Program-made: the position numbers and the translations under genes | Shown: one piece after another, positions 3,269-54,205 of the stretch | How positions within the stretch are numbered: the first letter of the stretch is position 1 | Layout of the letters: the number at the start of each line of letters is the position of its first letter | The notes under the pieces: model-generated | Told to the model about the DNA's origin: nothing | What the model saw: the letters and a program-made list of their open reading frames with translations, nothing else | The model's database searches: none | From: Leptogorgia sarmentosa | Taxonomy: Eukaryota | DNA length: 64,000 nt | Direction of reading: 5' to 3' | Assembly (NCBI GenBank): GCA_964658305.1 | Contig: OZ210885.1 | Location: 22,444,001 to 22,508,000, forward strand

Positions 3269-3432
3269 AGGGAACGAGCGCGAATGCAGGTCCCCACTAC
3301 CTGAAATTATACGCTCGAGTTACCCACATTAGGGGTAATCGCAGGAGTCAACCCAGTCGAAGTGCAATGAAAGGGCCTTATCCTGAGAGGACCTCCTAGT
3401 TGATCAAGGTGCCTCTCGCGTCAGGTAAGTAT
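3269..3432 (-). ncRNA. RNU1: U1 snRNA gene, full length (164 nt)
   Basis: Reverse complement starts ATACTTACCTG. It has SLI GATCA, SLII loop ATTGCACTTC, Sm-site ATAATTTCAGG and terminal SLIV with TTCG loop. Confidence 0.96.
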
Positions 3433-3463: not shown

Positions 3464-3864
3464 TGCTGCAACCGTGTGGAATGCTTGTGGAACGAATGTA
3501 TGGGGAAGAGTTTGTCTGCCCATCTCTCGGACTGCACCGTGTTTGCACGTTCCGACAATTCTCGACCATATTCAATACGAGTTTACAAAAAAATCCATGA
3601 GTGTAAATCTCATGAACAGCGATGCTGCTTTGTTGGCCAGCGAGCTACCCAAGACTATTTTATAACATAAATGTGTTAGGCTGCTGCTTACCATGCAAGT
3701 ATAATTCGTTTGTCGTCGGACATCCGCACTCAATACGTCATATATACGTATTTCCTGCCAAATGCCGGTTTGCGGCGATGATCTATCTGTAAAGACAAGA
3801 ATAATTTAATTGTTAGAATTTTGAACTGTTAGTGAGAAATCTTCCCCCAATAATGAAATTGGGG

Positions 3865-4033
3865 AAGTGGGCCGTACTCGGAGGTAGTGCAATACAGAGA
3901 CAACCCGTGGCCAGGGCGAAGCAAGCTTCAATCCCATGGTCAAGGTCCAAAAATCAGTTTAATATATGAGTTAGGACATTGCCTAACATATCAGATATTA
4001 AGCTGATAAGAACAGATACTACACTTGATCTTA
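3865..4033 (-). pseudogene. RNU2: U2 snRNA nt 22 to end; 5' 21 nt displaced by an insertion
   Basis: Reverse complement reads TAAGATCAAGTGTAGTATCTGTTCTTATCAG, Sm site ATTTTTG, SLIV loop ATTGCACTAC. Confidence 0.95.
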
Positions 4034-5170
4034 TTTTGGTTTATTAAAACGTTTTAACTATTTACAAGGCGCAGTGCAATGCCCATAAGTCAAAGCACGA
4101 GAAAAAAAGATCATGCCATACTAGTCCAGCTAGTTGTCCGTTTTATGGCCAATGGCCTACACTACTAAAATTAAATCAAGCGTCCTGCGCCCATCAGTCT
4201 GCAAAGCTGACACATGCTCCAGCCTCGTACCCAGGCGCGAAAAAGCAAAAAATAAATGCACTACAGGGTGTATCAAAAAAAAGTTTACTCGCGAAAAATG
4301 TCTTTTAAGCCGAAGCGCACGCACCCCATTGCAAACCATTGGTATATCTAAGTAGTTTGAGCCCTTCGGATACATCCTACACTAAAAGTTTGCAGAAAAC
4401 GACCATTTTACGACTACGAAAAGTGTTATAAAAAGCCGTAGTAAAAATGGCTTGCACGAAAAAATGTGAGCCGGAAAATGCAATTTGATTTGACAGCCTA
4501 AATCTATCGAACAAGTTTCATAAGTTATTCACGTTTTGAGAAATTTGGTTCACGCTGAGACGAACGTGCAATGTCCGAAAACTGGATTTTCCGCAATTTC
4601 TTCGCGTAATTACGTACCTTTGGGAATTAGCTTCCAATTTGCATTGGTAATTAATGCAAATATCCAATTATGCATAAATAAATGGTAATCACGCAGGAAA
4701 GAACGCAAAATCCAGTTTTCGGACATCGCACGTTCGTCTCAGCGTGCACCAAATTTCTCAAAACTTGAATAACTTATGAAACTTGTTCGATAGATTTAGA
4801 CTGTCAAATCAAATTGCATTTTTCGCCTCACATTTTTTCGCGCAAGCCATTTTTACTACGGCTTTTTATAACACTTTTCGTAGTCGTAAAATGGTCTTTT
4901 TCTGCAAACTTTTAGTGTAGGATGTATCCGAAGGGCTCAAACTACTTAGATATACCAATGGTTTGCAATGGGGTGCGTGCGCTTCGGCCTAAAAGACATT
5001 TTTCGCGAGTAAACTTTTTTTTGATACACCCTGTATAGTGCTTTTACATAGATCAGTGGCTAGGCTGAGCAAGCGCGCGGGGGTTGATGGGCAGGACGCG
5101 ACGGGAATTCGCAGCGCCTGGCAGAGAATGCAAATATGACTCTTCAGAAATATGATATCTGAAGAGTGAG
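4034..5170 (-). mobile_element. 3' end of an unclassified retroelement abutting U2 nt 22; far boundary uncertain
   Basis: Minus strand reads AATAAA-CC-AAAA directly into U2 TAAGATC. No coding part seen. Interrupted by the MITE at 4264-5033. Confidence 0.55.
4264..5033. mobile_element. Tc1/mariner-type palindromic MITE
   Basis: TA|CAGGGTGTATCAAAA...TTTTGATACACCCTG|TA; nearly the whole element is an inverted repeat. Confidence 0.92.
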
Positions 5171-6649
5171 ACCACACAGCTATTTACATGTGCATCTTCA
5201 ATCATTTTTTGCATTTTTGGTGAATATAACTTATGGATGAATTAGAACAATCGCTGAAGGAATTATCGTTTGAAGGTACGTCAAACTCGTCTGCCATTAT
5301 CCTAATATTCTGATAATGAAATTGCTCTTTGTTCAAATTAGCATCTTCGAGTTCTGATGATGATTATCTAATCTTTAATTTATCGTCGCGTGGGGAACTA
5401 AATTATCAAGGTGAAATAGGTAGTTATTTTATAATTTATATAGCAACTCAAGTATAATTCATACAGTAGATACCCCGTGGAAATGCACAAATTAACAAAG
5501 ATTGTTTGGTCCCTGTAAATCAGAAGAGGGGCAGGGGAGGGGAGAGGGGGTACAAAGATTGTTTGGTTCTTATAGAGTAATTCAGATGCAATAGTGCTGT
5601 TAATGGTCTCAAGGGTTATGTCCAATATCTTAGATTATTATTTATTTCAAACAATTCAAGAGTTTTGATTGGTTAAGAGCAGTGCAATAAATCTTCATAT
5701 ACGACATTATGATGTAATTATGTCGTATATTGAAAATTATACGACATTATGATGTCAACTAATTTATTCTGCATATGCCAAAAGCGGGAAAATTGTGGAA
5801 AATACAAATGGCTTCCTCAAAGGAAAGGTTCTTCCAAACGTTTATACTGAGTTGAAATAAATTTGTTTGATTTAATCCTTGTTTAGCTATGTTGAATTGC
5901 TTTGACTGCGATCTTGAAATGTACAACAGCTATATAGTCAGGGAGCATGTGTAATCCCGTGGGAAATCTGTGAAGAAAGCAAGCAACAGTGCTAGTCGTG
6001 TTCAGGGGACTTCCAATATTAAGAAAAGTGATGTTGCCAAGTTTGCAACTTGCTCTATGCCAATTTACGGGGTATTTTGTAAAATGACGTCACAAGTTCA
6101 GCATAGAAACGAGGCTGGTATCAAAATCATTAATATCTTTGCTATTTTCCAACGAAATTTCACGAAACTTGTAAAAAATAATCATCATGCCATTCAGACG
6201 ACAGTAGTGGTATTTTCATTGTGTCACGTGACTCCTAACATGGAAACGAGGCTAATAATGTAGCGGGCTACTTGGGCTACCTGTGTATTGCTCCGTGGGA
6301 CTGGGACTAAGTATGATGATGCACTATTGCTAGTCAGCGGTTTTTATCATTGAATAGTGATCCGGTGATCTGCCATGTTCTATCTACAGGCTCTGTAAGT
6401 ACATATTTTGTGGCCTTTGTTCTCTGGATGTCAGACAATAGACCGGATTTTAAATTCTGCATTTTGTGCCACAAGAAAACACAAGAATCTCTAGTACAAA
6501 ATCCAATGTCACACGAAAGATTGCTTTGATTTGTGGAAGAGAGAAGTGGATATGGAGATCTTTATTATCGTGATACCTGGTTATTGCTACAGCATTACAC
6601 ATCACAAGAGTTAGCTCTTCAGAATGCAACATAGCACAGATCATGCTAT

Positions 6650-7905
6650 CAGGAAGTCACCAATACAGGAAAGTTAAAAAGAGCAAAAGAGAAATGCGAA
6701 AAAGAAGATGGACCTACAAGTTCTAAGCGAAAAAAGGAGGAAGGCAAAAAATTGACACGGTCCCAAACATGCCCCTACAATAAGGAACTGTGCTTCTTTT
6801 GTGACCAAGCGGCTGGCAACAAAGATCCTCTGCATTCCGTTAGCACCACGTCAGCAGGACAGTCAATCCGGGCTGCTGTAGAGATTCTGGGAGATGAAAA
6901 ATTGCAAACAAAGCTTGCAACATCAATTGACGCCAATGACGCTCATGCCATAGATATCAAGTACCATAAGAATTGTTACCTGAACAATGTCACAAATATA
7001 CTGCGAAGATCCCAATTCCAATCAAGCGAGGATAATGCCGAGACAGCTGGCAGGATTGAATTTTTACATATCACTGAGAAGGCTTTGAGAGAAGGGAAAC
7101 CTTTAAATATGGCAGATCTCGAGACCCTGTATATAAATGTGCTTCTCGAAAATGATGTACTGAATCCCTCATGCTCGAGAAAGACACTGAAGCAATTAAT
7201 TTCAAGTCACGTTCCAGATGTTGAATTTCACAGGCCGAAACGACTGAATGAACCGGAAAGACTAACTGTAAAAGAAACTCGGGATAAGTCAATATCAAAC
7301 AACAAAGACTGTTCCACCGACACTGAGATGAAAGCTATCTATGATGCTGCAGCACTCCTTTGCAAGCGTATCAATCGCAGCAAGAGTTGGACCTTCACCG
7401 GACGCTTTGACGAGCTTGGTAATGAACATCTTCCCAAGGAGCTATATTGCTTTTTTAGATGGGTCATACATGGTCCAATAGAATTTCAATCAGGTAAGTA
7501 TATCATTACAATGTTTTTTATAGATTGGGCTGGGTAGGGGGATTTCCATATTGACTATATTAATTATTATAATATCGCCTTTACCTAGATGACAAGTTCA
7601 GTGAAATCTACAAGCGGGCAGTTACCCTGAGCCAGAGCACCATCTCGATGACCCTTACTGATCGCCAGGTGAAGCACCGGAAGTCAGAGGTATATTAAGG
7701 GCCTTCACATCCTCCAAATCAATGACATAATAGATGTATTTATTTTCTTCTAATCTGTGTTTTTAAAGGTAATTCGATCAACAAAAGAAATGCCTCAACA
7801 ACTTGCCATTGGTTTGGCAATACACCAGTGTATTAGGAGCAAAGCGATTGTAAATATGCTACATGGGTTTGGGATGTCGGTAGAGTACAATCGTATTCTA
7901 AGAAT
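6650..7905 (+). pseudogene. Academ-like transposase N-terminal fragment (spliced)
   Basis: CFFC...DAHAIDIKYHKNC, then a downstream exon PQQLAIGLAIHQCIRSKAIVNMLHGFGMSVEY; breaks off near 7905. Confidence 0.6.
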
Positions 7906-8456
7906 TGGATGTAAGTGATCCAGAAAACATTTCATCTTCACAGAAGAAGCAAATTGAAAAAGAAATGAAGGAAATGGAAGAAATGTGCTCCTTGGGAATG
8001 AGAGAGGAAAGTGATATAGAAGACCTATTCAAGAGAGAGATCTTTAAAGATCTGCTTAACAATTTTGAAGAGAAGTGCCCGCTTTTGCACAATGTTCTGC
8101 AGACACTGTTGGTAACAGATAAAAGGCAAAGAGTTTATAAAACTTCAGAGTATAAACTGACCTGTGGTGTTAATGCATTGTATCTATTACTTAGTGTCAG
8201 GAATCGGAAATGTAAAAATGATGTACGACTGCTCCTCGGTCTTGTTTGTGTCACATATGGAGCTGGTAAACAGTTTATCAATCTTTTAAATTCTATTGGA
8301 TTGACACCACATTGGGATACCATGTATGTATCTTTTCCTTTGTCAATGTACTTATACATTTCATTTTGGTAGTTTGCACAAATTTTATTCCCTGATAATC
8401 ACTAAGTAAATATTGAAAACATCCATATTCAGAAAGACTCAAAGAATCACCATCTG

Positions 8457-27150: not shown

Positions 27151-28306
27151 TTAATGGTGACGCATTGGACAACGTAATCCAGCAGCTTTCGAACGAGATT
27201 GAACTAATTAATAAGACAACAGATCAGTACGGTAGGACCATATTCCATTGTGCAGTTGAAACAAAAAATTATGTCCTGGTAAAACTCCTACTTGCGGTTG
27301 GAATCAACCCTAACGCAAAAGAAGGGTGTGGAGCTACACCCATGACAATTGCTGTACTTAATGCAGACCATGAAGCAAGCAAAATTTTGTTGGAAAATTT
27401 CGCGGAATACGAAGGAGCTCTCTTTGGCTCTTTTCCAAGTCCACTAGAAATGGCAACTGCTATGGGATTGGCAAATATTGTAGTACTGTTTCAGTCCTAT
27501 TCGCAAGCAAATGACAACCCGGTAGTAAAAGCACTCCAAAGGTCTGACAGCAGTTTAAGCAACATTAAATCTACCCAAAACCCAGTCGAAGATATGGACG
27601 CGGACAGCAATCCTCCAGCCGAGAGTGGTTGTGAGTACGAATACAAGAGGTCCGATTACAAAGGTTTTCCAACCGCTGTTGTGGGCGATGTCGGAACATG
27701 TAAAGTAAATCGTAGCGTTAAGCACAGGAACAGTACAGCATATAGTTGGATGACTGAAATACCCGGAGATATGCATGCAAAAGGTCATTTGTGCGAAGCA
27801 ACATTCAAAGCACACGGGAAGAGCGGGTTCCATAAATTAGTACATTCTGTCATGAAAAGACCAAAACTCACTGAAGAAGCCTTTAAGAAACGAAAATTCC
27901 AAGAGCAAAACCTCAACCATATCCAGGAAGCCGTAAGAGATGCCAGTTTTGCCTATGGCAGTTGAAGAGTTAAGGGCATCGGACGAATTTCCATCAGATG
28001 AGGATTAGACTGAAGACTTAAAAAAGAATGGAAATCACAATACGGTTCTACTTAGTAGTTTCAAGAAGTGGTTGAAAAAATGCGCCGAAAATGATGACAG
28101 TCATAGCTATCACCAACAATCATTTACTTTGTTTGGTCCGTTGTTACACTTGTTCATAACTGTGGGCAAAGAAGGAGATGGAACCCTACGTGAGACTGCG
28201 TGGATTCTACTACTGCCTATTTTTGCACAATTGAACTTCCGGAACTATTGGACCGAAGCATTTGTGCATGTGGTGAATTTCACGTCCCTATGGCCGCTGG
28301 CTTTCC

Positions 28307-31300
28307 ACTCCTCCCCCTCCCTCCCCTTCCATCTGTGAAACTCCCGCACCCTCCATATGTGACCTCCCAACCGAGGACTATGATGACCCAGATATTTCCT
28401 TTGATATTCCCTCCCCTCCACACGCTTCAGAATTCCTTTCCCAACCATTCCCTTCCCACCCTAGCAGACCTTCCGTTTCCCCACCTCAACAAAATCCTCG
28501 CCCTACCTCCCAATCCCCCCCAATCCCCTTCCCCTACACTCCCACGCACTCCCTCTCCTACCCCCCTCATCCACCCCTTCCCTGACCCATCCCATCCATC
28601 AAGTTCTCATCCACCCTCAGACCCCTCCCATAATATCCCTATGTCCCCTCCCGCTGATGCCTTACCATCTACACCTCCGACCGATCCCTCCTCAAGTGAT
28701 ACGTCTAACTCATTACCCCCGAACCATCCCAATAACCCCTCAGATGTCTCATCTGAGTTCTCAAACAAATGGTTAGCTACATTCTCCACCAATTCCAACT
28801 GGGATGACTTCTCCAACCAATGCTATAACTTCGCAAGTGATGTCATCCTGGAGTGTGATAAGAACTTTGATCTTAGGAAGAAAGCTGCACCTCGACGTAA
28901 CAACCGCCCATCTGCCAGACCTATCAATGCCAACCGTCGTCCGCTCAAATACAACCCTATCGAAGCCCGTAGAATCCAACGCTTATACCGCCTCTCCAAG
29001 AAGCGTGCCGCCAGACAAGTAATAAGCGATAATAAACCATCCTACACTGGCTCGGTCGATGAAGCGAACCATTTCTTCCAACAGGTCTTTGGTGAAAAAA
29101 CTGTCGACCCTGATGCAGTCCAACAAGGTCTTAAGGACAACGTTCCATCTGGCCCTAAAGATCACTCCCTCTATGATCCCATCACTCCCAATAAAATTGC
29201 CAAAAAACTCTGCTCCCTTTCTAACTCCGCTCCTGGTGCTGACCGAGTTGAATACGGACACCTAAAGTCCGTTGACTCCAAAGGTGAAGTACTCTGCGCC
29301 ATCTACAACCGGTGCTTAATAGAAAATGATGTTCCTTTAAAATGGAAATCATCTTGGACAGTCCTGATCCATACAAAAGGTGATGCCGCTGACATTTCCA
29401 ACTTTCGTCCCATAGCCCTGATGAGTTGCATTTATAAAATTTTCATGAGTATTCTGGCCGACCGTCTGGTCACCTATTCCATCGACAACAACTACCTGTC
29501 CAACTCCCAAAAAAGCGCTCGTCCCACCGAAGGATGCTATGAACACACCTTCATCCTGCAATCATTTGTTCTTGATGCCAAAAGACACCAAAAGAATCTC
29601 TTTGTTGCTTGGCTCGATCTACGAAATGCCTTTGGTAGCGTTCCCCATGAAGTCATCTCCCTTACTCTATCCCACCTTGGCATGCCTGATCCCATCGTAA
29701 ACCTGGTTAAAAACATCTACACCAATGCCACAACCGAAATCAACACTCCTGCAGGAATAACTCCCGGCATTCCCATCCATGCTGGTGTTAAACAAGGCTG
29801 TCCGCTATCACCCATTCTGTTTAACTTATGTATTGAGATCATAATCCGGGCAATTGCCTCAAAGGGACATGACAGCGGTCCTGTTAAGCATTACAATGGT
29901 GAAATTTCTGTCTTGGCATATGCTGATGATTTGGTCCTTCTCGCTAAAACCAAGGACAAACTCCAACTCCTTGATGCAGCATCCACCTCTGCCAACCTCA
30001 TCGGTCTTGTTTTCCGTCCTGACAAATGTGCCTCCCTAAGTATGACCTACAGCAATAGATGTGATGGCAACATACAAATCAACAACCTCAATGTTCAAGA
30101 CAAAGCCATCCCTGCTCTAAAAGAACACAAACACTATCGGTACTTAGGAGTTCCCATCGGTATGATCCGCGACGTCGACAATTTAGACTCTCTGGTTGAT
30201 GACCTCTGCAATGACCTCGACAGAATCAGTAACTCTCTCCTCGCCCCCTGGCAAAAACTGGACGCCATTCGAACTTTTGTGCAGCCTTGCCTGACATTTG
30301 CTCTCTGTGTCGGCGAACCACAAAAAGCGTCCCTAACCAAGTACAGAAGGAAACTCATTGAAGTTGTTCGCTCCACCTGCCATCTACCTCTCAGTGCCAC
30401 AACCCATATCATCTTTGCCTCAACAAAAGCAGGTGGCCTCGGCTTTCAAGACCCATATGATGAAGTGGACGTCCAAACGGTGGTCCAAGCAATCAAAATG
30501 CTTTCCTCCAAAGACCCCTTTGTCTCTGCCGTGGCCATTGGTGAACTCAGACGAGCGGTCACCTTCGCAATACAATCAGATGTGTCCCCTGCTAACATCC
30601 GTGACTTTCTTTCCGGATCCACCCAAGGTAAATTGCACCACTCACGCATGCGATACCGTACCCACTCCCTATGGACACGAGCAAGACAAGCATCCCATCG
30701 TCTGGGCTTAACTTTCAACGTCCCTGACAACGACGCCCCGTCCATCTCAACGACCTCAAAAGGCCCTTGCCCTGCTCGATCAGCATCCGCCTTCCTACAT
30801 CGTATAGTACAAGATCGAGCCTCAGAAAAGCTGATGGCCCTCCCGGATCAAGGAAAGGTTGCTCGGGCTCTTGTCAAAGATGCATTTTGTAACGGTTCCT
30901 CCTGGCTTTTCTCGGGTCTCAACATGCGTTTCAAGGATTGGAGATTCATCCACCGTGCAAGATTGAACGATGTTCCAACAAACCAGAATAAATCCCGTTG
31001 GTCCGACTGCTCTAATCTCTGCCGTGTTTGCTCCTCCCACCCAGAAACCTTGCCCCATGTCATTTGCCATTGTACATCCAATATGGTCCAAATTCGAGAA
31101 CGCCACAACTCCATAGTGAATCGACTAGCGAAAGCCGTCCGATATGGTAACGTTCAACTTGACTGTCAAATTGATGGCCTAGATGATGAGTGTCGCCCTG
31201 ATATTGTAATACTGGGGCCGGTTGTTCGAAAGTCGGATAACTTTATCCACTGGATAGTGATTTTTTCAACCGTTGTAAAAATGTTCAAAAAGCTATGAAA

Positions 31301-32135
31301 TTGCAGATGTGGGCCTGGCAAGTAATTGAGAGAAAGTCCAACTTTAAAATATCAAAGTTTAATCTAAATAAGAGTGATCAATGGGTTGTTTTAGGAAGCT
31401 TGAAAAAATCGCTATCCAATGGCCCCGGACAACCGGCCCCAGGAGGATAACGAAGTTACAATCATCGATGTAACCTGCCCCATTGACAACGACGAAAACG
31501 CCCTCTCCACCGCGGACTTCAATAAAGTAATGAAATATAACCACCTGAAACATCATTTCAAGCAACTCGGACTTAACTGTCACGTCTTTGGTTTCGTTAT
31601 TGGCGCTCTTGGAACATGGCACCCTAACAATGAAGCTGTCCTAAACCAACTCCGTATGGCTAAATCCTATAAGTCGCTGTTCAGAAAGCTATGCTGCTCC
31701 GATGTCATCCGTGGCTCAGCAGAAATATACTACAACCACATGGCCCAGCTAGTGGACTAAACACTGAACAAACAATTATTCATAATTTCATAGCTTAATT
31801 ACTCCTCACCTGAAAAAGTATAATCCCATTCTTTGTGTGCCTTCTGTATTCATATAACATGAAACAATAGTATAACAAAGTTAGTTCTTAGTCACCCCAG
31901 AATCAGTAGTAAAACAGCACATCCGTATACATAGTACAGCAAACTAGTTCCCGAAAACATTCGTCTCAGAATTATTAAGCTAATTAGTATTCAGTTATCA
32001 CGAACATTACGTCACATATAACATATATATATATAGTCACTTAAGGTATTCTAATAACTATGTCATTAGTATCTCACGAATAACTACGTCATCAATGTAA
32101 ATAACTATTTCTTGTTTTGAATAAATTTGTTACAA
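28307..32135 (+). mobile_element. Utopia-type (RLE, R2/NeSL-group) non-LTR retrotransposon inserted in U2; 5' end missing
   Basis: RT (GVKQGCPLSP, AYADD), CCHC (CRVC..ETLPHVICHC), RHN, RPDIV..IIDVT RLE domain. The 3' end AATAAA..ACAA joins U2 nt 39 TCTGTTCTTATC. Confidence 0.93.
31215..31439. mobile_element. Harbinger-like MITE in the Utopia endonuclease domain
   Basis: TIR GGGCCGGTTGT..ACAACCGGCCC with CTG/CAG flanks; splits RPDIVI|EDNEVTIIDV. Confidence 0.85.
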
Positions 32136-32288
32136 TCTGTTCTTATCAGCTTAATATCTGATATGTTAGGCAATGTCCTAACTCATATATTAAACTGATT
32201 TTTGGACCTCGGCCATGGGATTGAAGCTTGCTTCGCCCTGGCCACGGGTTGTCTCGGTATTGCACTACCTCCGAGTACGGCACACTTT
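32136..32288 (+). pseudogene. RNU2: U2 snRNA nt 39 to end
   Basis: TCTGTTCTTATCAGCTTAATATCTGATA..ATTTTTGG..GTATTGCACTACCTCC. Confidence 0.95.
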
Positions 32289-32849: not shown

Positions 32850-32874
32850 ATCGCTTCTCGGCCTTTTGGCTAAG
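32850..32874 (+). pseudogene. RNU2: U2 snRNA nt 1-25 with upstream flank
   Basis: ATCGCTTCTCGGCCTTTTGGCTAAG. Confidence 0.95.
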
Positions 32875-35800
32875 TTGTTCTGACAGTTGGTGGTCTTGCT
32901 GCCGAAGTCTGATTGCTGCTGAAGAAGATATCCGTGCTGTGGCACTGTTCAGTTTCGTGGTCCTGTCCTGTTGGTCGTTCCTGTGCCGTTCAGTCCGTTC
33001 CTGTGCTGTTTTCCTGTGCTGTTCCTTTACTGTGCTGTCCAGTCCGTTCCTGTGTTGTCTTCTTGTGGTGTCCGTCCCTGTGCTGTCCAGTCCGTTCCTT
33101 TGGTTCATGTCGGTCGGTTCAGGCCTCCTTGGCTTCGGCCTTGGTGGTACACCGCGTGGCTGTGCCTTTCTGCGAGGCCCTCTAGGGGGAATCGTTAGGA
33201 CAGGCTCCTTCTTCCTTTCCTTTTTAGAGGGATTCGTTCCTTTTTTCTGCTTCCCTTCCTGTTCGAGACTGGGTTCTCGGTTTAGTTAGTTTTCGAGACT
33301 CGGTTCTCGGTTTAATTAGCTATCGGGACTTGGTTCTCGGCTAAGTTAGATTTTGAGACTTGGTTCTCGAGTTACGTACTGTGTGTTTTCGAGAATTGGT
33401 TCTCGGTTTAGTTCGTTATCGCGACTTGGTTCCCGGCTAAGTTAATTTAGTTCTCGAGATTTGGTTCTCGGTTAAGCTCAGTGTGTTTTCGAGACTTGGT
33501 TCTCGGTTTAGTTAATTTTCGGGACTCGGTTCTCGGATAATTTAGTTCTAGAGAGTTGGTTCTCGACGTAAGTTTAGTGTGTTATCGAGACTTGGTTCTC
33601 GTAGTTAAAGCTTTATAGACCTTTCTGTTCTCGACGTTAAATTTATCCTTTTCTTTTTCCTTTTTTCTCTTCCCTTTTTGCGAGACCTTGGTTCTCGTAT
33701 GCAATTTAGAAATTAAAATATAATAATATCGTATAGTAATATTGTGTATTGAGGATGATTCCTCATGTCAATCGCACCTGCAATGAGGTCATAGATGACT
33801 TTCGTGGTCAAGTAGATGACTACACCTTCGTTTTCGAGGCTATCGTGATGATGGCCCCTGGCCGATTCCGTGTCACCTTTAAGGGTGCATGGAAGATAGA
33901 AGCTGCCGAGCACTCGGGTTTGCTAGTGTGAGGCCTCCCTGTAGAATTCATGCCAATCTCTAAATACACCTGGGTAAACGTTACCCGCGTATCATACGGC
34001 GTACCTGAAGTCGAGATCACTAAGGTGTTAAGTGGCTTCGGTGAAATAAAAAAGATCTCGTCAGAGGTCTACTCCAACATATACACCGGTGTGAGACATG
34101 TGTTGATGGAAATCCGTCAACCTATACCCTTCTGTATGCGCATCGCTGGCCATTGGTGCTTTGTCCATCATAAAGGCCAGAAACGCCTTTGCTTTCGCTG
34201 TGGCCAAGAAGGCGTAAAGATTGCGTAATCCCCGAAATCGGAAAACCTTTTTCTCCTGGCTTAATTGCGCCAAGCCAGACATCAGAGCACTTCAAGAGAC
34301 ACACTGTCGATCGCTTGAAGAGTTTCAATCCTGGCTAGCTACTGAATCACGTGAAAATAATAATTTACGACATTACTTAGTAGAATCTTCTCCGGGCTCT
34401 ATTCGTAGTGCCGGGGTCGCACTACTTTATAAACCTAGCTTTAAAATTGAGAAGGTTGCCAAAGATTCCGACGGCCGACTTATAGTAGCCTGCTTTAAGC
34501 ATATCAACCTGGAATCTGTGTTTCAAGTTGTAAATATCTACGGTCCGAACCAAAAAAATGCCAGTATAGATTTTTTTGCCTCCTTACATCAGAGGATCGA
34601 TCCAGCCCTTCCCACGATATTGTGTGGGGATTTCAATGTCGCCGTTGATCCGCAGATCGACCGTTTGGGATGCAATCCAGATTCTCCCTGGGCTTATAGC
34701 TGACCTGCACCTCTTTCTTCTTTAACTAATAGGTGTGATCTACTCGACACCTGGCGTTTACACCATCCAAACGATCGTGCTTATACATGGCGTCGAGCCA
34801 ATGGATCCCAAGCATCCAGATTGGATATGTTTTGGATTTCTTCTTCCCTGCATGAACATGTCTCTGAGGTGTCTATCTCCCCTTTTTTCCGGTCTGACCA
34901 CTCCTACGTTTTTCTCCGAGTGGCCTTTCCGGCTTTGCCTGAACGAGGTCCTGGGGTGTGGAAATTGAATACCTCGCTATTGCGCGATGAAACTCTGTGC
35001 GCAGAGGTCCGTTCTTTTTGGGTTTCGTGGCGGTCCGAAAAAGAGACCTTTCCGTCCTTGGCCGTTTGGTGGGATGCGGGCAAGGCTCGTTTGAAGGACA
35101 AGATTCGACATTTTTCTCGTGGCAAGGCTTAGTCACGGTGGTCAAACATCCACAATTTAGAAATTACCCTAGAACATCTTCACCGGCAGGAAGCCAATGG
35201 TGATGACGTGGCACACCTCGTAAAAGAGACTAAGGACAAACTCGAACTGAAACATCTACATGCGGCGGAGGGCGCGCGCATTCGCAGCAACGAGCAGTGG
35301 GCCGAGGAAGGCGAAACTTCTTCTGCCTTTTTCTTCCGTCAGGAGAAAGGGAGGGCATCACGCTGTTTATTTACTGGCATTCGCGATGCACATGGCACTA
35401 TAGTACGATCTGTTTCCGCCATTTTACGAGTTTGGTGCCTTTTTTACGTTCAACTTTTTTCTGCGTCTCTTTTATCTCCCTCGGATGAGTCTTTTTTCAT
35501 CAATAGCTTAGATAAATCTCTTTCTTCTCAAGAAGCCCAGCTTTGTGAAGGAGAGGTCACATTATCTGAATGCCAACGAGCTTTGAATTCCTTCAAGCAT
35601 AACAAATCTCCGGGTCTCAATGGTTTGCCATACGAGTTCTACCAGTCTTTTTGGGACACATTAGGACCTGATTTAGTAGCTGTATATAACGATTGCATGG
35701 CACGGGGTGCCCTTTCTTTTTCACAGCGAACTGGGTTAATCTCGCTTCTCTTTAAGAAAAATGACCGCTTGGACGTCAAGAATTGGCGTCCCATTTTCCT

Positions 35801-37203
35801 CTTATGCACTGATTATAAAATTTTATCTAAGGTGTTTACCAACCGCCTCAAAGTAGTTCTATCTTCTGTTATCTCAGAATCACAAGCTTGTGGTGTTCCT
35901 GGCCGGTATTCCGGGCTGAATGTCAGGACATTGCAAGATGTAGTTAATTTTTGTAATCGCAACAATACTGGAGGGGCTATTATTTCCTTAGATCAAGAGA
36001 AGGCTTTTGGTCGGGTTGACTGGGGATTTATGCTACGCACTTTGGAAAAGATGCATTTTGGTCCGTCCTTTTGTGCATGGGTCAAACTCCTGTACACCAA
36101 CATTTTTTCTCGCGTCTTAGTTAATGGTTTTGTGAGCGATGCCTTTATCATTACTCGTGGCGTTCGTCAAGGGTGTCCTCTTTCTCCCTTGCTATATATA
36201 ATTGTGGCGGAGACCATCTCAAGCGCAATAAAAAAGGACCTCAACATTGACGGTTTCCAAATGTTCAATGTGTTCCCTCTAAGAAGTCGAGAGCGACTCG
36301 AGAATCGTCTGACTATTTAGCAGGTCAAGGTCTCGTTCGTTAACGGAATGAATTAACAGAATCGTCGTTTTTTCCGCCCTGCTGGGTGTGCTACGGCACA
36401 ACATTTGGCTCAGCCGCAACGTCAGCGCTTCGATCACGTTGCTCCTGATGCTACCACCACCTTGAAGAAAGCCAAGTCCACCTTCCGCTTTCTGGTGCGA
36501 ATGTACAAGAGACATCGCCCACAAGACCGGTTTGTCCAGGAGTGGCTGGCTGACGGCGTTATTGGCTCTCTCACCGAGCAAGACTGGATCCGTTTTACCA
36601 GGGATTTTATTACCTGATTCCTTCTTCTCTCTTTCCTCCCTCTTCTCCTTTTTTCGTTCTTTGTGTTCTATGTAGCGGTCTAGGGGCATGACGGTCGCCT
36701 TAACTGGTTGTACTGTCGTCGCCTTCTGGACTCGTTTGTTTTTGTGTCGTTGTCTTGGACTGGACAGCACATTTGTTTTTATGTTCAATGTTGGTTTGTT
36801 TTGTCCTCCCATGAAGATCTAGCGGTCGCCTTCATTGGTTGTACTGCCTGTATCGGATTGGGTTGTTTGTTTGTTCCAATTTTTGCCCTGTGGTTCGCTT
36901 GGACTTGTTCCAAGCGGGTTGCACAGGTGTTGATCTAGGGGTTGCTGCTCATGTTGTAATCGTTTAGTTTAACATCATCATCTGACCATTTCACCATCAT
37001 TAGCTTAGGGATCCCTGGGCATGAAGGTGGATAGCACCGGATCGTTCAGGCCACTCACGGTTGCATCATGGCACGGGGGAGGGGCTCACAACCCCTGTCG
37101 ATCCGCGTCACCTGTAGTGACCCCCCTGGGTGCGGCGATTTGTTTGGGTCCAGGCTCCATTGCACCGTCGGAGTCGACAAGCCCGTCGTCGTTCAACTCA
37201 AAA
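32875..37203 (+). mobile_element. Tx1-clade LINE, family A copy 1, inserted in U2 with TSD TAAG; internally deleted
   Basis: Repeat-rich 5' UTR, ORF1 from 33756, APE (LQETH, GDFN, SDH), RT (GVRQGCPLSP), ~590-bp 3' UTR. Both U2 junctions are present. Confidence 0.93.
33262..33700 (+). repeat. Array of ~13 palindromic CGAGA-CTTGGT-TCTCG units in the Tx1 5' UTR
   Basis: Period mostly 30-36 bp with T-rich linkers; also at 48427-48780 and 59917-60122. Confidence 0.9.
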
Positions 37204-45400: not shown

Positions 45401-48365
45401 ATGTTGTGACAGTGATAAGATTTTTGCAAAATCCATTCTTCAAGTGGAAATTTCATTCTGATCGTAACTATTAAAGCCAATTTTAAAGCAGGATACGAGT
45501 TGAGCAACCAGTAAGTTGCATAAAATGCCTCCAGCAGCAAGTGGAAAATTTGCCCAGAAAGCTGGTTCGCTCGATCTTCCAAAAACCACTCGCAATCGTG
45601 GACCTGCGAAGACAGGTTCCATGGAGTAAATGAAGAAATGTTGAACTTTCACTGCTAGACACGATCATTTGACGATGGAATGGGCCGGAAAATTCATGAG
45701 GACGAACACAATGTTTGTTCTTTTCACTGACGAATCAAGGCCGACACTGGATGGTTCAGATGGCTGGAGTAAAGGATGCGATGAGGAATGCCCTAAGGGG
45801 ATGAGACGCCAACATGGTGTTGGAGGATTATGAACAGGAATGGAATCATCGCAGATGCACTCATTGGTCCCTTCCGTGTGCCTGAAGGTCAGAAGTTGTC
45901 TTCTGCTATGTATTGCCCTATCCTGAAGAAATCCCTTGAGTCACGGTTGGATAAACTTCCTTTAGCAACATTGAAGAAGATTACCTTAACGCATGTCACA
46001 TGCAGCAAAGGCAACAACGGAATCCCTTCAGTCGTTTGGTTTTGTGAACAAAATCGTAATGGTTTGGCAACTAAACTCGCCAAATTTGAACCCAATTGAG
46101 AACTTGTGGTGGATAATAAAGCGTCATGTTTATATCATCTAGATGGAACCCATCTTGGCAGGTGCACGATTGCGAGTGGTTTTTGCAACATCGAGGAGAC
46201 CAGCTTTCTGTGCAAATTTTCCACTTGCTGCCGGAGGCATTTTACGCAACTTACTCGTTGCTCAACTCGTGTCCTGCTTTAAAATTGGCTTTAATAGTTA
46301 CGATCAGAATGAAATTTCCACTTGAAGAATGGATTTTCCAAAAATCTTGCCATTGTCAGAACATGACCATCAAATCTTTCAAAAATTGCTTTTGTAATGT
46401 TGGTTATTGCTATTTCTTTCATAATAATGGCTTTTTTTGGCTAAGGTTAGGTCTTTTCTACTTCCCATATTGCTCGGCAATTTATGAAACTAATAGCGTG
46501 GACCACCTCTTTTATGGAGGAACACCTGGATTTTGTTGTCACGTGACTAATATGAAATGTAATCATTGCAATATTGTTTCTACCATGAACCAAACAAAAT
46601 TCACCGGTATTATGTTCAATCCTCCAAACATGTAATCTACAATGCACTAATATCATACCAAACTAATACCGTGGATCGCACTGTAGACGGCTTTCCTGCA
46701 GAATTTTATTTGAAATTCTGGCCTGTTTTAGGAGAAGACTACGTAGCGATGGTGAACGAGTGCTATGATTTGGGTTCTCTTTCTGTCACACAGCGTCATG
46801 GCCTTATCACCCTCCTTTTCAAGCGTGGTGATCGTACTCTTACGAAAAATTGGCGCCCAATCACTCTGCTATGCATTGATTATAAAATTATCTCCAAAGT
46901 TATTGCCAACCGTCTCTTACGAGTCATTGCATCAGTCACAACACAATCTCAAACCTGCGGAATCCCAGGTCGCATGTCTGCAGAAAACGTTCGCCTATTA
47001 AAAGACCTTGTCCATTACGCCAACGAAAAGAATATTGGAGGAGCGATTCTGTCCTTGGATCAAGAGAAAGCTTTCGATCGCGTTGAATGGTCCTTCATGG
47101 TGAAAGTCCTCCAAGGAATGGGATTCGGACAGTCCTTCATTCAATGGGTACAATTATTCTACACAAATATTTCATCATCGGTTTTTGTAAACGGGTTTAT
47201 CTCGCAGGAATTTACCGTGTCCCGTGGTGTCAGACAAGGTTGTCCATTGTCTCCTCTATTGTATGTGCTGGTCATCGAAGCTTTGGCTATCACTATTCAG
47301 AAAGATCCTCACATTGAGGGAATCGTCCTACCAGATAGTAGTGTTCAAAAACTGGTTCAGTACGCAGACGACACAACAGTCCTGGTATGCTCTGATGCGG
47401 CCATCCTCAAATTGTTTACTACTTTCGGATGGTACGAACACGCTTCTGGGGCTAAATTGAACCTTAGTAAATGCCATGCTTTGCTTCTCGGCTCATGGCA
47501 ACACCGTCAATTCTTTCCGGTCGACTTAGAATGGAGAACAGATCACATCACTGTGCTGGGGGGTCGTATTTCTAATACCAACGAAGAAGATTGGAGCACA
47601 CCATTAGCCAAATATGATACAGTGTTACGTTCCTGGAGTCAGCGTCAACTCTCTTATTGGGGGCAAACTCTCATCGCGAACATTTTAGGTTTGAGTCTGT
47701 TTTGGTACATAGCCACGTTTGACACAATTCCTGAACGTGTGGTTCGTACGATCAATCAGAAAACGTATGTTCTAATATGGAACAAAAAACGTGAAGCACT
47801 CGCTCGGCTCTCCATGCTTAAACCACATAATGAAGGCGGCCAAGGGGTAGTGGACGTGAATACTAAAGTAAAATCACTACATTGTTTATGGGTGAAACGA
47901 TATATCCTTGGCGTTGGCACGCGTTTTTTGAAGATGCATTACGGTCGGCATTTCCTAGTTACGCATCAATCGAGATAATCCTTTCCACACATTCCCTTCC
48001 AACTCAAAGTTTGAAACGACTCCCGCCTTTTTACAAATCCGTGCTGTCATCATGGGCTCGACTGACTCCCCGTCTTGAGAGTGGAACATGGTTTATTCCC
48101 CTACGACCGGGAGTGGAAATAAACTTGGCACAATTAACAGCACGAATGGCCTACCGGAAACTTCTCCCACCACACCAACACCGGTGCATTGAAAAATTTC
48201 ATTCTCTGGATCTTCAAGTTGACTGGCCTCCGGTTTGGAACAGCCTGCCTCTGTGGAATTACATCCGCTCCGTTCAAGACACTTCGTGGTTATCGTTCCA
48301 CGGGGTGTTAGCGACCGCAGATCGGCTCATCAATTTTGGTATGAACGTTAATGCATCCTGTCGCT
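42461..48365 (+). mobile_element. Tx1-clade LINE, family C, truncated at both ends (ORF1 tail; ORF2 from 43680)
   Basis: YPGQP..C, Pro-rich tract, APE (GDFN, SDH), RT (LDQEKAFDRV, QYADD). Confidence 0.88.
45082..46683 (+). mobile_element. Tc1-like element with ~550-bp inverted arms and transposase remnant
   Basis: TA|CAGTGCGA..TCGCACTG|TA splits the host KSPGL|DG. Remnants FTDESR..LDG.DGW and SPNLNPIENLW. Confidence 0.9.
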
Positions 48366-51300
48366 AGGCAGGCTCCTTTTCCTTTCTTTTTTGGAGGGAT
48401 TCGTTCCTCCTTTCTTTTTTCCTTTCCGAGTCTGGGTTCTCGAGTTAGGTCAATTTAGTTTTTCGAGACTTGGTTCTCGATTTACGTTAAGCGTGTTTTC
48501 GAGACTTCGTTCTCGACTTAAGTTAAGTGTGTTTTTGAGACTTGGTTCTCGAGTTAGTCAAGTTGTTTTTTGAGACTTCGGTTCTCAAATTAGGTTAACT
48601 TGTTTTTCGAGACTTTAGTTCTCGAATCAGGTTCTTTTCTTTCTTTCCTTTTTTTCGAGACTTTGGCTTTCAGGTCAGGTTAATTTGTTTTTCGAGACTC
48701 TGGTTCTCGAAGTTAAATTTGTCCTTTTCCTTTTTCCTTTTTTTTCCTCTTTCTTTTTTCGAGACTTTGGTTCTCGAATGCAATTTAGTACATAAATAAT
48801 AAGTAAAGTAATATAATATAGTGTGGGGAGGATGATTCCTCACGTTAATCGCACTTGTGATGTCATCCTTTCGGATAACATCGAGGCGCAGAGAATAAAT
48901 GTTAAAGAAGTCATTGATGAGTTCAGGGGAAAAATCGATGACTACAAGTCTACTTTTGAAGCCATCGTATTGATGGCCCCTGGTCGGTTTCGCGTCACTT
49001 TCAAGACGGCAAGGAAAATGGAAGCTGCTGAACATACGGGTCTCACCGTGCGAGGCTTCCCGGTTGAATTCCGACCAATTCCTAAGTATACTTGGGTTAC
49101 GTCACCCGTTTATCATACGGAGTTCCTGACGAAGAAATTACCAAAGTCCTAAGTGGCTTTGGTGAGATTCGCAAGATCTCGTCAGAGGTATACTCGAATA
49201 TCTACACTGGGGTTCGGCACGTTTTGATGGAGATCAAACAGCCTATCCCTTTTCGTCTTCGAATCGCTGGTCATTGGTGCTTCGTGCACCACAAGGGCCA
49301 AAAGCGACTTTGTTTTGGTTGTGGTAAGGAGGGCCACAACCGCTCAGACTGTCCAGATCGTGTCCCACCTTCGGCTCAGGACTTGACGTCTTCTGGGTCT
49401 TCCAATCTTTCGGGGCATGTGCCTGAGCAGGTTCACCAAACGGTGGACCAATCGAACCACTATCGGGTTCGCTTCCTCCCTTACCATCAGGAGTGGAAAG
49501 CGAACGCTCCTCTGAGACAGTTAAAAATCTGTCTCGAAAAAGACCCGTTCCACGGCCTCGTAATCGCAACAAGCAAAGGCGGCCTGTAACAACTGGCGAA
49601 CAAGATCACTCGCACTCACCGCCCCGTAAAGACTCTCGTCGGGAGAGTGAGGATCCCCCTTCTGGGAGTTCATCACAGGCCGGGCAGACATCGATGGATG
49701 TCGACCCTGCGTTGAAACTGACCCCTCTGCCTGAAGAGGTGCCCCTACCACCGGAGGTTCCCAAAGAGGTGTCTCTGCCTGAGGAAATAGACAACCTTTT
49801 AATCCAGGGTTCGTCCCTCCCTGACCCACACGTTGACGGCTCGGCTTCACACATGGCCAAGGAACTATCAGATTCTCTTTTGACCTTTGACGCACTGGAT
49901 GGTGCTAGCTCTCTTAGTGGGAGTAGCCCAAAAAATAATGTACCGGAAGCCTCTCAAGTTTCCGAAGAAACTCTTGTAATGCGCCACTTTTTTGAGGAAG
50001 GTGGCCCCCTCTCCGATGATGGATCGGAGGGCTGCTTTTGATCCCTTTTTTTTCCCACCTAGTGATTTAATTTATAATAATAGTAAATAATTTATATAGT
50101 ATATTTTTCACACACCCATCATGCCTACACAAGAACTAACTATAATTACCCTCAATGTTCAAGGGTTACGTCTCCCTCGTAATCAGAAAACTCTTTTTTC
50201 TTGGTTAAACTGTGCTAAGCCTGATATCATTGCCCCGCAAGAAACGCACTCTCGTTCCATAGAGGAATTTTCCTCCTGGGTGGCGTCTGAAACACAGGAA
50301 AATAATAATTTCCAACGATACCTAGTGGAATCTTCTCCGGGCACTATACAGAGTGCTGGTGTAGCACTACTATACAAACCCTGTTATAAGGTAGAGCATG
50401 TTGATAGAGACACAGATGGTCGTGCCCTCATAGCGCAATTGAAACATGTCGATCCTGAATCTCTGATTCAGGTTGCCAACATATACGGTCCAAATAAAAA
50501 GCAAGCTGGTGAAGAATTTTTTTCCTCTCTTCATCCGCAACTTGACCCTTCTCTCCCCACCATTTTGTGCGGTGATTTTAACGTTGTTGTCGACCCCCAT
50601 GTTGACCGCCTTGGTTGCAACCCAGACTCTCCTTGGGCATATAATTGGCCTGCATCTCTTTCATCACTGACCGATCGGTGCGATCTGGTTGACACTTGGC
50701 GATTAACGCACCCAGATAAGCGGAGTTACACGTGGCATCAGGCTAATGGCTCCCAGGCTTCACGAATAGATATGTTCTGGATTTCCTCTTCGTTACATGA
50801 GCAGGTCTCTGAGGTATCCATTCTTCCTTTTTTCAGCTCGGACCTTTTTCACCTGGTGTATGGAAGCTCAACACATCTTTGCTGCGCGATGAGACGCTGT
50901 GCGCGGAGGTCCGCAACTTCTGGGTCTCGTGGCAGTCCGAGAAGGACACTTTTCCGTTTCTTTTCCGTTGGCAAAGCCCGCCTGAAAGAAATCATCCGTC
51001 ACTTTTCTCGAGGCAAGGCCCGATCAAGGTGGTCGAACATGCACGAGTTAGAATCTACCCTTGAACAGCTCCATCAACGAGTGGCTAACGGTGAAGATGT
51101 GGCTCATTTGATAAAGGAGGCACGGGACAAACTAGAACTTAAACATCACTATGCAGCAGAGGGTGCGCACATCCGGGGCAGGGAACAGTGGGCAGAAGAA
51201 GGTGAAACTTCGTCTGCCTTTTTCTTTCGCCAAGAGAAGGTGCGCGCAACGCGGCGCCTTTTCACTGGCATCAGAAATGCTCAGGGAGCTATAGTAAGAT

Positions 51301-54205
51301 CCCTATCTGCCATCTTGCGTGTTTGGTGCATTTTCTATGTCCAACTTTTTTCTGCATCCATCCTATCTTCTTCGGATCAGTCCTTTTTTATAAACAGTTT
51401 GGAGCATTCTTTGTCGGCAGAGGAAGCTCAGCTTTGTGAAGGAGAGGTCATGTTACAGGAATGCCAGCGTGCGCTAAACTCTTTTAAACATAATAAATCC
51501 CCGGGTCTGGATGGGCTACCCTATGAATTCTATCAGTCCTTTTGGGACACTCTGGGTTCCGACCTAGTGGCAGTCTACAATGATTGCCTGGCACGAGGTG
51601 CCCTTTCCTTTTCCCAGCGCACTGGCTTAATCTCTCCCTTGTATAAGAAAAATGATAGGCTGGATGTTAAGAACTGGCGACCAATTTCTCTTTTGTGCAC
51701 TGACTATAAAATCCTGTCCAAGGTGCTTACAAATCGCCTTAAAACTATCTTATCCTCGGTTATCTCCGAATCCCAAGCATGCGGCGTCCCTGGACGTTTT
51801 TTCTGGCCTGAATGTTAGGGTATTACAGGACATAGTTAATCACTGTAACCATAGCAACACTGGGGGTGCCATCATCTCGCTGGATCAAGAAAAAGCTTTC
51901 GATAGGGTTGGGGGGGTTCATGCTGCGGGTTTTAGAGAAAATGAATTTTGGTCCGTCCTTTCGTGGGTGGGTCAAGCTTCTGTATACGAACATCTTTTCC
52001 CATGTTTTAGTGAATGGTTTTACCAGTGGCGCCTTTAGTGTCACTCGGGGAGTTCGTCAGGGGTGCCCTCTCTCTCCTTTGCTTTACATCATTGTAGCTG
52101 AAACAATCTCGTGTGACATTAAAAAGGACTTAAATGTCGACGGCTTTCAGTTGCCGCATGGGGACTCTGTAAAAATTTTTCAATATGCGGACGATACATC
52201 CATTATCGGAGCAGGCCCTCCGGTCACTTTTCTCACTTTTCGCACGATACGAGCTGGCTTCCGGTGCGAAGCTAAATATTAACAAAAGCCATGGTCTCCT
52301 TTTCGGGTCCTGGAAGGATCGGACCGATTTACCGATCCAATTGAATTGGTCTAGCGAGGCTATAACCGTGATCGGTTGCCGGATAGCAAATGTGGAGGGA
52401 GCGGATTGGCACACCATTGTGGAAAAGTTGGAGCGGCAGTTGGGTGTCTGGAAACAGCGCCAACTGTCGTTTCGGGAAAGAGCTCTAATCGTCAATACTC
52501 TTGGCCTGTCCAAGGTACCAGGTACCAGGCAACATCCTTTGATATGCCTAAAGTAATTGCAGCTAAGATTAACAAGATTGTTTTCCCTTTTGTTTGGGGG
52601 AAGAAGAGAGAGTGGATGGCTCGCACCTCCGTCGTTCAGCCCACCACTGCAGGGGGCTTGAATGTTGTCGACATCCACAATAAACTTTTGTCTCTTCGGG
52701 CCGTATGGCTCGGCCGGTTTTTCCTCCACCATAGACACCCGTGGTCATCCCTTTTTTCGCAACTTGTTGCTGGCGTGTTCGGCCAGTCGGTGCCAGAAGT
52801 ACTTGCTCGTGATCCTCTGCCAGCCTACCTAATAAAAAAACTCCCTCCTTGTTATCGAGGTGTATTAACGCCATGGGTCCTCCTCAAAGGCAGGAGTGAG
52901 CAAGGGTGAATGGGTAATTCCTTGCCCTTCGGGGCATTTGCTTCCTATTTCTGAGCTGACCGCTTGCGCAGGGTATTTTTTCCCTGCTTCGCAGCTCATC
53001 AACCGTCAAACACCGGTCAGTTGCAAAGTTCCGCGAGTGGGGCATTGATGTCCCATGGCTGACTGTATGGACATCCTTACACCTATGGCGTTTTGTGCGA
53101 TCTGTACAAGACACTGCCTGGCTGTCGTTCCACGAAATACTCCCGACAGCAGACAGGTTAGTGCGATTTGGCATGCGTGTCGATCCTCGGTGCTTCTGTG
53201 GCCAGCAGGAGACATTGTTGCACCTATTCACCGACTGCCCTTTTGCAATAGCAATTAAAGCATGGTTTCATGCACAATATGCTAAGTTTCGGCCAAACGC
53301 TCCCCAATTATCAGCATTCCACCTCCTTTTCACTTTTGCCAACGATCATCAGGTTCCTGTAGCTTTTTCTGCCCTGCTGGGTGTGCTACGACACCACATC
53401 TGGTTAAGCCGCAACGCTCAGCGGTTCGATCATGTGGCCCCAGATGTTCAAGCAACCATGAAGAAAGCCAAGACCACCTTTCGCTTTCTGGTGCGCATGC
53501 ACAAACGACATTGCCCTCGGAACAGCTTTGTTCATCAGTGGCTGGTTGACGGCCTGATAGGGACGCTCACTGAGGAAGATTGGATCAGATTCACAAGGGA
53601 CTTCATCACCTAAGTTCCCCTTCTTCTCTCTCCCTTCTCTCTTGCTTTTTTTCCGTCTTCTTTGTGTTTAATGTAGTGGTCCAGGGGCTCGACGGTCGCC
53701 TTTACTGGTTGTACTGTCGTCGCCTTCTGGACTCGTTTGTTTTTGTATAGTTGTCTTTGGACTGGACAGCACATTTGTTTTCATGTTTAATGTTGGTTTG
53801 TATTGTCCTCCCATGAAGATCTGGCGGTCGCCTTTATTGGTTGTACTGCCTGTATCGGATTGGGTTGTTTGTTTGTTTCAATTTTTGCCGTGTGGTTCAC
53901 TTGGACTTGTTCCAAGCGGGTTGCACAGGTGTTGATCTAGGGGTTGCTGCTCATGTTGTAATCGTCTAGCTTAACATCATCATCTGACCATTTCACCATC
54001 ATTAGCTTAGGGATCCCTGGGCGTGAAGGTGGATTGCACCGGATCGTTCAGGCCACTCACGGTTGCATCATGGCACGAGGGAGGGGCTCACGACCCCTGT
54101 CGATCCGCGTCACCTGTAGTGACCCCCCTGGGTGCGGCGACTTGTTTGGGTCCAGGCTCCATTGCACCGTCGGAGTCGACAAGCCCGTCGTCGTTCAACT
54201 CAAAA
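48366..54205 (+). mobile_element. Tx1-clade LINE, family A copy 2, near full length, 3' end at U2 nt 22
   Basis: ORF1 about 48831-50041 (CFGC..GH...C); ORF2 50121-53613 with frameshifts; ends CAACTCAAAA|TAAGATC. Confidence 0.93.

Follow-up and report, generated by a model that had tools for sequence, protein, structure and literature searches.

A repeat ending at nt 22 of a U2 gene in Leptogorgia sarmentosa, likely the tail of a second Tx1-lineage family, carries a hairpin predicted to bind host U1A/SNF

The window analysed here, the whole stretch of 64,000 nucleotides of Leptogorgia sarmentosa DNA, contains a repeat, insert B, that ends exactly at nt 22 of a U2 snRNA gene. In the reading that we consider probable, B is the 3' tail of a second Tx1-lineage family, beside the Tx1-type family A of the same window, and the hairpin in this tail is predicted to bind the host protein U1A/U2B''/SNF. 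Insert B would then belong to a Tx1 retroelement with target specificity whose tail bears a predicted site for a host protein; the motif is more general than an earlier note on this DNA had seen. To our knowledge, the protection and nuclear return of the RNA of site-specific LINEs are largely open questions, and we know of few host partners of LINE tails that are known by sequence. Here the U1A/SNF hairpin, a well-characterised protein-RNA code, recurs in unlike tails with its known tolerances, while relatives in the same arrays do without it; the hairpin tails and their hairpin-free relatives thus offer a direct test with ready controls.

Read on the minus strand, the U2 junction of insert B runs from GGGC (4084-4081) through the loop ATTGCACTGC (4080-4071) to GCCT (4070-4067), and continues in a 33-nt spacer that ends in AATAAACCAAAA and leads to U2 nt 22 at 4033. 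This reading confirms the C-G-closed GGGC-loop-GCCT hairpin 33 nt before U2 nt 22 that had been noted earlier. With its 4-bp stem, C-G closing pair and 10-nt loop, this AUUGCAC hairpin (4067..4084, minus strand) is a predicted U1A/SNF-type site, and its heptamer ends 40 nt from the U2 junction. The surrounding 3' part of B (4034..4263, minus strand) is T-rich and non-coding and has AATAAA-CC-AAAA at the junction; the AATAAA, recognised from the sequence, lies at 4040..4045 (minus strand), 28 nt 3' of the heptamer. The target is represented by the U2 snRNA gene from nt 22 on (3862..4033, minus strand), nt 1-21 being missing at the B locus. Rfam matches beside B are U2 at 3862-4055 and U1 at 3269-3432, the latter an intact U1 snRNA gene (3269..3432, minus strand) with its SLII loop, ATTGCACTTC, from 3368; the order U2-spacer-U1 is common to 32135-32746. 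The loops ATTGCACTGC of B and ATTGCACTTC of the window's U1 SLII are one base apart. This one-base difference, also pointed out before, stands for the window copy but not beyond it, the variants in runs X1 and X5 reading ATTGCACCGA.

To evaluate chance we used 100,000 dinucleotide shuffles of the 230-nt B segment, in a test framed after the motif had been seen. The heptamer fell 25-55 nt before the end in 587 of the 100,000 shuffles, and the heptamer in that interval together with a stem of at least 4 bp closed by C-G/G-C in 16. Among the background ATTGCAC sites of the window (outside snRNA genes and the A and B elements), one of ten passes the stem filter, indicating that single chance hairpins do occur. 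The statement that B is unlike the family A 3' UTR was likewise borne out: once the heptamer was removed, the A and B tails gave no alignment beyond chance, 261-479 of 2000 shuffles scoring equally high, and an apparent likeness in a 'GACTT' arm shared by A and B was rejected as not significant. In the window copy the B stem is weak, with a closing-pair probability of 0.34 and a folding z-score of -0.13, no better than shuffles. The closing-pair probability is 0.95 with the seven listed variant letters and 0.98 in family A.

Is B a repeat? Contigs from four of 20 listed sequencing runs (X1, X4, X5 and X7) were compared with window positions 4037-5400; X1 was possibly drawn from the window's own source. 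The X1 depth, a sum over contigs that does not measure copy number, was 917, 2040 and 861 over 4037-4174, and 54 (one contig, no differences) in the flank at 5187-5400, and up to six variant X1 contigs cover one place of the tail. Several X1 variant contigs, and one from X5, lie over 4039-4170. In the loose end of one X1 contig U2 can be read from nt 22, and the precise 3' end of B, AAAA followed by U2 nt 22, is therefore seen both in the window and in this contig, the one contig in which the junction is visible; the X5 contig also leaves 23 letters past its aligned part. The heptamer is kept in the variants, as read from X1, since only seven of the 20 differences between the X5 contig and window B are listed. 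The X1 and X5 variant contigs are changed at loop positions 8 and 10, reading ATTGCACCGA; variant letters in and beside the hairpin lie at 4071, 4073 and 4085, and the pair below the stem, T-G in window B, has become C-G. X4 and X7 have no contig cover of 4037-4128, the last 90 nt of B, which says nothing on absence. The junction is thus not a one-off and B is not single-copy, in agreement with the earlier proposal. Since the U2 body next to B differs from that next to family A copy 1 at 3 of 156 places, window B and the variant look like subfamilies, and not like the products of simple decay.

Insert B is interrupted by a 770-bp palindromic MITE (4264..5033, no strand assigned) with CAGGGTG termini, a later insertion at a TA that is duplicated at 4262-4263 and 5034-5035. 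The empty site is consequently 4263 joined to 5036, and the join of 4261 to 5036 proposed earlier drops 2 nt; MITE-free joints were found in three of the four runs (X1, X4 and X5). A second MITE with CAGGGTG termini like these lies at 20986-21571 of the window. Beyond the insertion, the 5'-most surviving part of B covers 5036..5105 (minus strand, end approximate), where the X1 depth falls from 1803 to 257 and 54 and flank contigs stop at 5075 and 5080. From these stops and from 31-letter words we infer a repeat edge near 5105-5110, short of the 5170 first given, which leaves about 300 nt of B at the locus. No terminal repeat of a transposon was found at this 5' edge among the longest 25 of 242 repeat pairs. 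The pieces 5036-5105 and 4181-4263 form an imperfect palindrome, whose arm-to-arm score was reached by 24 of 2000 shuffles, and this palindromic part around the MITE may be a repeat separate from the B tail. Its cover in X4 and X5 is 64 and 106, vs 0-5.5 for the tail, and the X1 depth at 4175-4220 is only 36; in one X1 variant contig the sequence that continues past 4170 closely resembles the outer end of the palindrome.

We found no ORF, 5' U2 piece or target duplication for B at its locus (upstream on B's strand), from which the 5' flank of the insert is lost, so that its reading as a retroelement rests on the junction and on analogy. Rfam, searched at E up to 10 over 3900-6600, had U2 as its sole real match; the interval still included the MITE, and the 5' end of B may have been lost from it. 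A telomerase RNA, a ribozyme or another Rfam RNA in B was rejected on the lack of an Rfam match and of a template visible by eye, and a coding frame because none was evident. Neither the B tail nor the palindrome had a convincing match in five bins (best E 0.13 and 0.03), and B had none in five contigs of bin G001, described below (best E 0.72; a 60-nt match inside ORF1 was taken as chance). Outside B, a 300-aa frame at 6635-7537 (plus strand) gave no Pfam match; its look-alikes are uncharacterised eukaryotic clusters of low recognition value, and it may be a decayed DNA-transposon protein.

The labels MITE, Tx1 and Utopia-like used throughout were assigned from domains, termini and sites. Family A copy 1 (48361..54205, plus strand, start approximate) is of Tx1 type, encoding a CCHC ORF1 and an ORF2 with AP endonuclease, RT and zf-RVT, and is frameshifted; its heptamer, at 54161-54167, lies in an 11-nt loop, and it joins U2 nt 22 at 54206. 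Copy 2, also of Tx1 type (32875..37203, plus strand), is internally deleted, has its heptamer at 37159-37165 and ends at U2 nt 22 (37204). Its 5' flank is U2 nt 1-25 (32850..32874, plus strand), which with the 3' flank gives a 4-bp duplication, TAAG (nt 22-25). In family A, ATTGCAC ends 38 nt before the U2 nt 22 junction. A search with its ORF2 found 83 relatives, the best named one being from an octocoral, at 52%. As a comparison element the window offers a Utopia-like RT element (28194..32134, plus strand, 5' end not mapped), which ends at U2 nt 38 and has no hairpin.

The locus is rearranged: two other Tx1 ORF2 fragments join directly to A-type 5' sequence, and there are several deletions. 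These fragments (43680-48361 and 54403-59918) have lost their 3' ends, and one of them groups with the U1 nt-3 families described below; either could be the parent of B. A further element starts after U2 nt 46, from 37229 onward. At 32730-32849 we also found U1 nt 1-17 only, followed by about 100 nt of other sequence and then U2 nt 1-25, which points either to truncation of a U1 gene or to a U1-targeting insert whose 5' junction lies here.

A search based on 28 aligned ORF2 relatives retrieved 57 loci from public prokaryote bins, and RNA genes were scanned by Rfam at 12 of them and by BLAST against U1 and U2 at all. The arrays of U1, U2, U5 and 5S genes in these loci identify them as animal DNA; the prokaryote species representatives G001, G002, G003, G004 and G007 contain such animal DNA, with snRNA genes and LINEs. 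Five G001 contigs contain Tx1 relatives, 38-40% identical to P0001, that stop at U1 nt 3 and have U1 nt 1-13 to 1-19 at their 5' side. All 13 of these junctions have C-[A/T]TTGCAC within 120 nt, and in 12 of the 13 it is presented on a C-G-closed stem of 4-9 bp, often at two sites, one tail having no good stem. In ten of the 13 tails, 40-44 nt separate the end of the last site from the junction (40 in B, 38 in A). The 13 junctions comprise 11 distinct 120-nt tails (two duplicates) of about seven types by our own reading. The stems pair though their sequences differ (GGGC/GCCT, GGCTCC/GGAGTC, CACAAGGC/GCCTTGTG, CAGAGAC/GTCTCTG and GATGGGC/GCCCATC), and the loops of the hairpin tails measure 10-21 nt, with the variation lying 3' of the heptamer. 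Many tails have two sites, one of the pair about 90 nt from the end. The hairpin also occurs outside snRNA genes: on L093 a Tx1 relative seen in one copy (4321-7929) lies in a tRNA cluster, where its end is 4 nt away from a tRNA-Gln(CTG) gene, on the upstream side, and carries two ATTGCAC hairpins. The motif is therefore not peculiar to the U2 nt-22 site, where it had first been noted: Tx1 relatives at U1 nt 3 have it, as does the one next to a tRNA gene. A role of the hairpin as a homing tag for snRNA genes was rejected, the tRNA-flank relative having it and five nt-38 Tx1 tails lacking it.

Five distinct G001 inserts of 1.0-1.9 kb lack ORF2 and end the same way. Three of them, of 1.0-1.3 kb (C46/C68; L064, L065, L067 and L068), have Pro/Ser/Val-rich frames of 190-291 aa and GGTAAG near the 5' end, and the two of 1.8-1.9 kb (C46/C68) are ORF1-like, with CCHC knuckles. 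In G001 both LINE tails and ORF2-less inserts thus carry the hairpin, and B, with no ORF at its locus, may be a sister LINE or a non-autonomous partner, in line with the earlier suggestion.

The hairpin was absent from all nine comparison tails, namely four G001 Tx1 tails at U2 nt 38, the window's Utopia-like element, a U1 nt-32, a U5-array and a 5S element and the G003 nt-38 element; two G003 U1 elements with an A-closed ATTGTAC were counted as ambiguous. In 32,250 nt of ORF2 DNA there was one CATTGCAC and no hairpin, and the motif was absent from the five tails examined among the near-identical loci L027-L060. Loci cut by contig ends (L005, L007, L012, L019, L061 and others) were left out of the tail counts, and the hairpin counts come from two genomes and from kin elements, which are not independent samples.

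Several further features of these loci were recorded. The G001 contigs C5, C46, C57, C68 and C71 (L062-L069) carry a U2-U1-5S array with a 2.08-kb unit, which holds several Tx1 families at U1 nt 3 and U2 nt 38, the 5' junctions in U2 ranging between nt 21 and nt 41. Other Tx1 families end within U1, at about nt 32-40, in L016 and L082 (G003; the pair with the A-closed ATTGTAC) and in L015 (G002), and in L023-L026 the Tx1 elements lie within a tandem U5 array of 436-bp units; their A tails are long and the hairpin is absent. A pattern of heptamer plus U2 junction matched no viral locus and four metagenome loci, all of which have the same U1-U2 chimeric gene and none a Tx1 insert; a pattern of A tail plus junction matched no viral and no genome locus, and an ORF2 search of viral contigs gave none. 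In the chimeric snRNA-like gene (L003 1102-1391, minus strand), from a metagenome eukaryote, the U1 5' half (5' end, SLI and SLII) is joined directly to a U2 that starts at about nt 9 and is otherwise almost complete, with overlapping Rfam matches of 120 bits for U2 and 52 bits for U1; L001, L002 and L004 have the same sequence at the match.

How are the hairpin-bearing elements related? Family A and the G001 C46 U1 nt-3 family have in common a 23-nt 3' UTR motif. In a 46-row RT tree, A, the two other Tx1 fragments of the window and the G001 hairpin families were joined at SH-aLRT 93, below the mark of 95, and apart from the nt-38 families; in a 23-row tree one unresolved node took in the hairpin groups and three additional rows, of which two are known to be hairpin-free. 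Both trees are quick searches with no reference Keno, and B, having no RT, is in neither. Holding together the seven hairpin rows and three rows of unseen tail was not rejected by the AU test (p-AU 0.54). Given the UTR motif, the trees and this test, inheritance is the simplest reading, short of proof: as a putative U1A/SNF-type site the hairpin was probably handed down within a single Tx1 lineage, in the tails of its elements, and two independent inventions are improbable.

Why would such a lineage keep a U1A-type hairpin? According to PMC4114683, U1A requires its sequence to sit in a stem-loop whose loop is no shorter than 10 nt, prefers C-G as the closing pair and leaves the 3' loop bases uncontacted, and Drosophila SNF binds both the U1 and the U2 loops with a preference for C-G closure (PMC5992148, in part). 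In insert B, AUUGCAC occupies the 5' part of a loop that reaches this length, the closing pair is C-G, and the changes in its variants, at loop positions 8 and 10, concern positions that U1A does not read. Since the tails vary just where the U1A rules permit, we predict, as quite likely, that SNF/U1A binds the tail hairpins.

The scheme that we propose starts with a Tx1 ORF2, either B's own or that of family A acting in trans, which would nick the U2 DNA at nt 22 and reverse-transcribe from the short A tail. The element RNA would likely be transcribed from the promoter of the host gene. In the window copy of B the MITE would have entered later, and the 5' part would have been lost in a deletion-rich locus. 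The hairpin would have been passed on within a single Tx1 lineage whose target changed between U1 nt 3, U2 nt 22 and a tRNA flank. Lastly, and this is the weakest step, put forward only tentatively, the hairpin may provide the 3' end of the element RNA with a host snRNP protein that replaces the poly(A) signal and the long tail, with effects on stability and nuclear handling. Active import and shuttling are described for U1A in the relevant part of PMC2289521. AATAAA is found in the last 45 nt of one of 17 hairpin tails, vs six of eight hairpin-free tails, and the hairpin tails end in short A runs; from this rarity and these runs it would follow that a bound protein stands in for the poly(A) end. 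B itself, the sole hairpin tail of the 17 with AATAAA, counts against this step. Taken as a whole, it is possible, though we would not call it probable, that this Tx1 lineage and its partners dress their RNA as snRNA, the poly(A) signal being replaced by one or two U1 SLII mimics that recruit SNF/U1A and are kept across U1, U2 and tRNA targets, and that B is an independent-looking tail that has kept them.

Among the alternatives, the one that survives best, unlikely as we hold it to be, is that the element's own ORF1/ORF2 protein reads the hairpin, which would have been captured once from U1 SLII or U2 SLIV and kept for self-recognition, with no host protein involved. At 19-44 nt from the 3' end, the hairpin falls in the region that LINE recognition tails occupy (as treated, for shared tails, in part of PMC4494074), it is present in ORF2-less inserts, which need recognition in trans, and it tracks RT kinship and not the target, the tRNA flank included. 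Yet the variation fits the U1A contact rules closely, with a fixed heptamer and C-G pair, a free 3' loop and loops of up to 21 nt; many tails have two sites, one of them about 90 nt from the end; and the stem and spacer sequences are not conserved.

A different host protein, such as one of the GCAC-binding RBPMS/Hermes family, or a PIE-like block of polyadenylation that allows read-through into the target gene, appears improbable to us. GCAC binding is reported for RBPMS-family proteins (PMC5311487), two U1A sites inhibit polyadenylation in the PIE RNA (PMC9977717, likewise in part), most G001 tails have tandem sites, and in B an AATAAA lies 28 nt past the site. But a GCAC binder leaves the fixed upstream C-AUU and the C-G closure unexplained, 16 of the 17 hairpin tails have no nearby AATAAA that could be blocked, and B and one G001 tail type have a single site. 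That B is a composite, in which a rearrangement brought a U2-linked tail of 130-140 nt, with a hairpin due to chance, next to a palindromic repeat that has nothing to do with it (4181-4263 plus 5036-5105), would accommodate the uneven cover (64 and 106 vs 0-5.5 in X4 and X5, and the X1 depth of 36 at 4175-4220), the weak stem, the one in ten background heptamers that pass the stem filter and the several deletions at the locus, but is very improbable in view of the X1 variant contig that leads from 4170 into a near match of the palindrome's outer end, of a junction, spacing and closing pair like those of family A and the 13 G001 tails, and of the joint chance of 16 in 100,000 shuffles, and a composite upstream part would in any event leave the U2 junction and hairpin of the tail standing.

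In the literature searched we met neither a U1A-type site described for a LINE tail nor Tx1 elements at U2 nt 22 or U1 nt 3, and no paper that treats AUUGCAC together with a retrotransposon. As of 2015 the elements of snRNA genes for U1, U2 and U6 were Keno, Utopia and Dada only, according to the part of PMC4640811 available, and the available part of PMC8869645 has nothing on U2 nt-22 or U1 nt-3 sites. The nt-22 and nt-3 families may already be deposited in Repbase, and the supplements of PMC4640811 and PMC4494074 may contain junctions relevant to whether the nt-22 site is new.

Keno is among the closest known systems. The family A ORF2 has a Tx1-type AP endonuclease, RT and zf-RVT, both A and B sit in U2 genes, and Keno is reported from cnidarians (PMC4494074, in part). 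However, Keno and Utopia have a common 3' junction at U2 nt 38-39 (PMC4640811, in part), whereas A and B, which otherwise work like Keno, end at U2 nt 22; moreover, the five nt-38 Tx1 tails are without the hairpin, and their RTs fall apart from A in trees that hold no reference Keno. Utopia, of the RLE clade, likewise targets U2, and the window has a Utopia-like copy at nt 38, but the site differs from nt 22 of B, the endonuclease is another one, and the window copy has AATAAA and no hairpin.

Non-autonomy linked to Tx1 machinery and to U1/U2 sequence is known from the crocodilian SINEU, moved by Tx1-Mar (in the relevant part of PMC4494074). There, by the same source, the heads are snRNA-derived and insertion is into a Mariner element; in the elements described here insertion is into the snRNA gene itself, and it is the tail that bears the snRNA-like motif. 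A SINE partner of family A would need an A-like tail, and the B tail has no significant likeness to it outside the heptamer. A 3' RNA structure reported to protect retrotransposon RNA, the ENE of the Evade LTR retrotransposon (PMC12501189, in part), offers an analogy only, being, by the same part of that source, an RNA triple helix with poly(A) and not a predicted host-protein site. The paired sites of many G001 tails recall the U1A PIE (PMC9977717, in part), which has two sites by a poly(A) signal, unlike B, with one site and AATAAA, and unlike the G001 tails, often with two sites and no AATAAA. Finally, U1 SLII and U2 SLIV, the sites of U1A, U2B'' and SNF, present AUUGCAC in the 5' part of a C-G-closed loop of at least 10 nt (parts of PMC4114683 and PMC5992148), just as the tails described here do, with the difference that the predicted site now sits in the tail of a mobile element.
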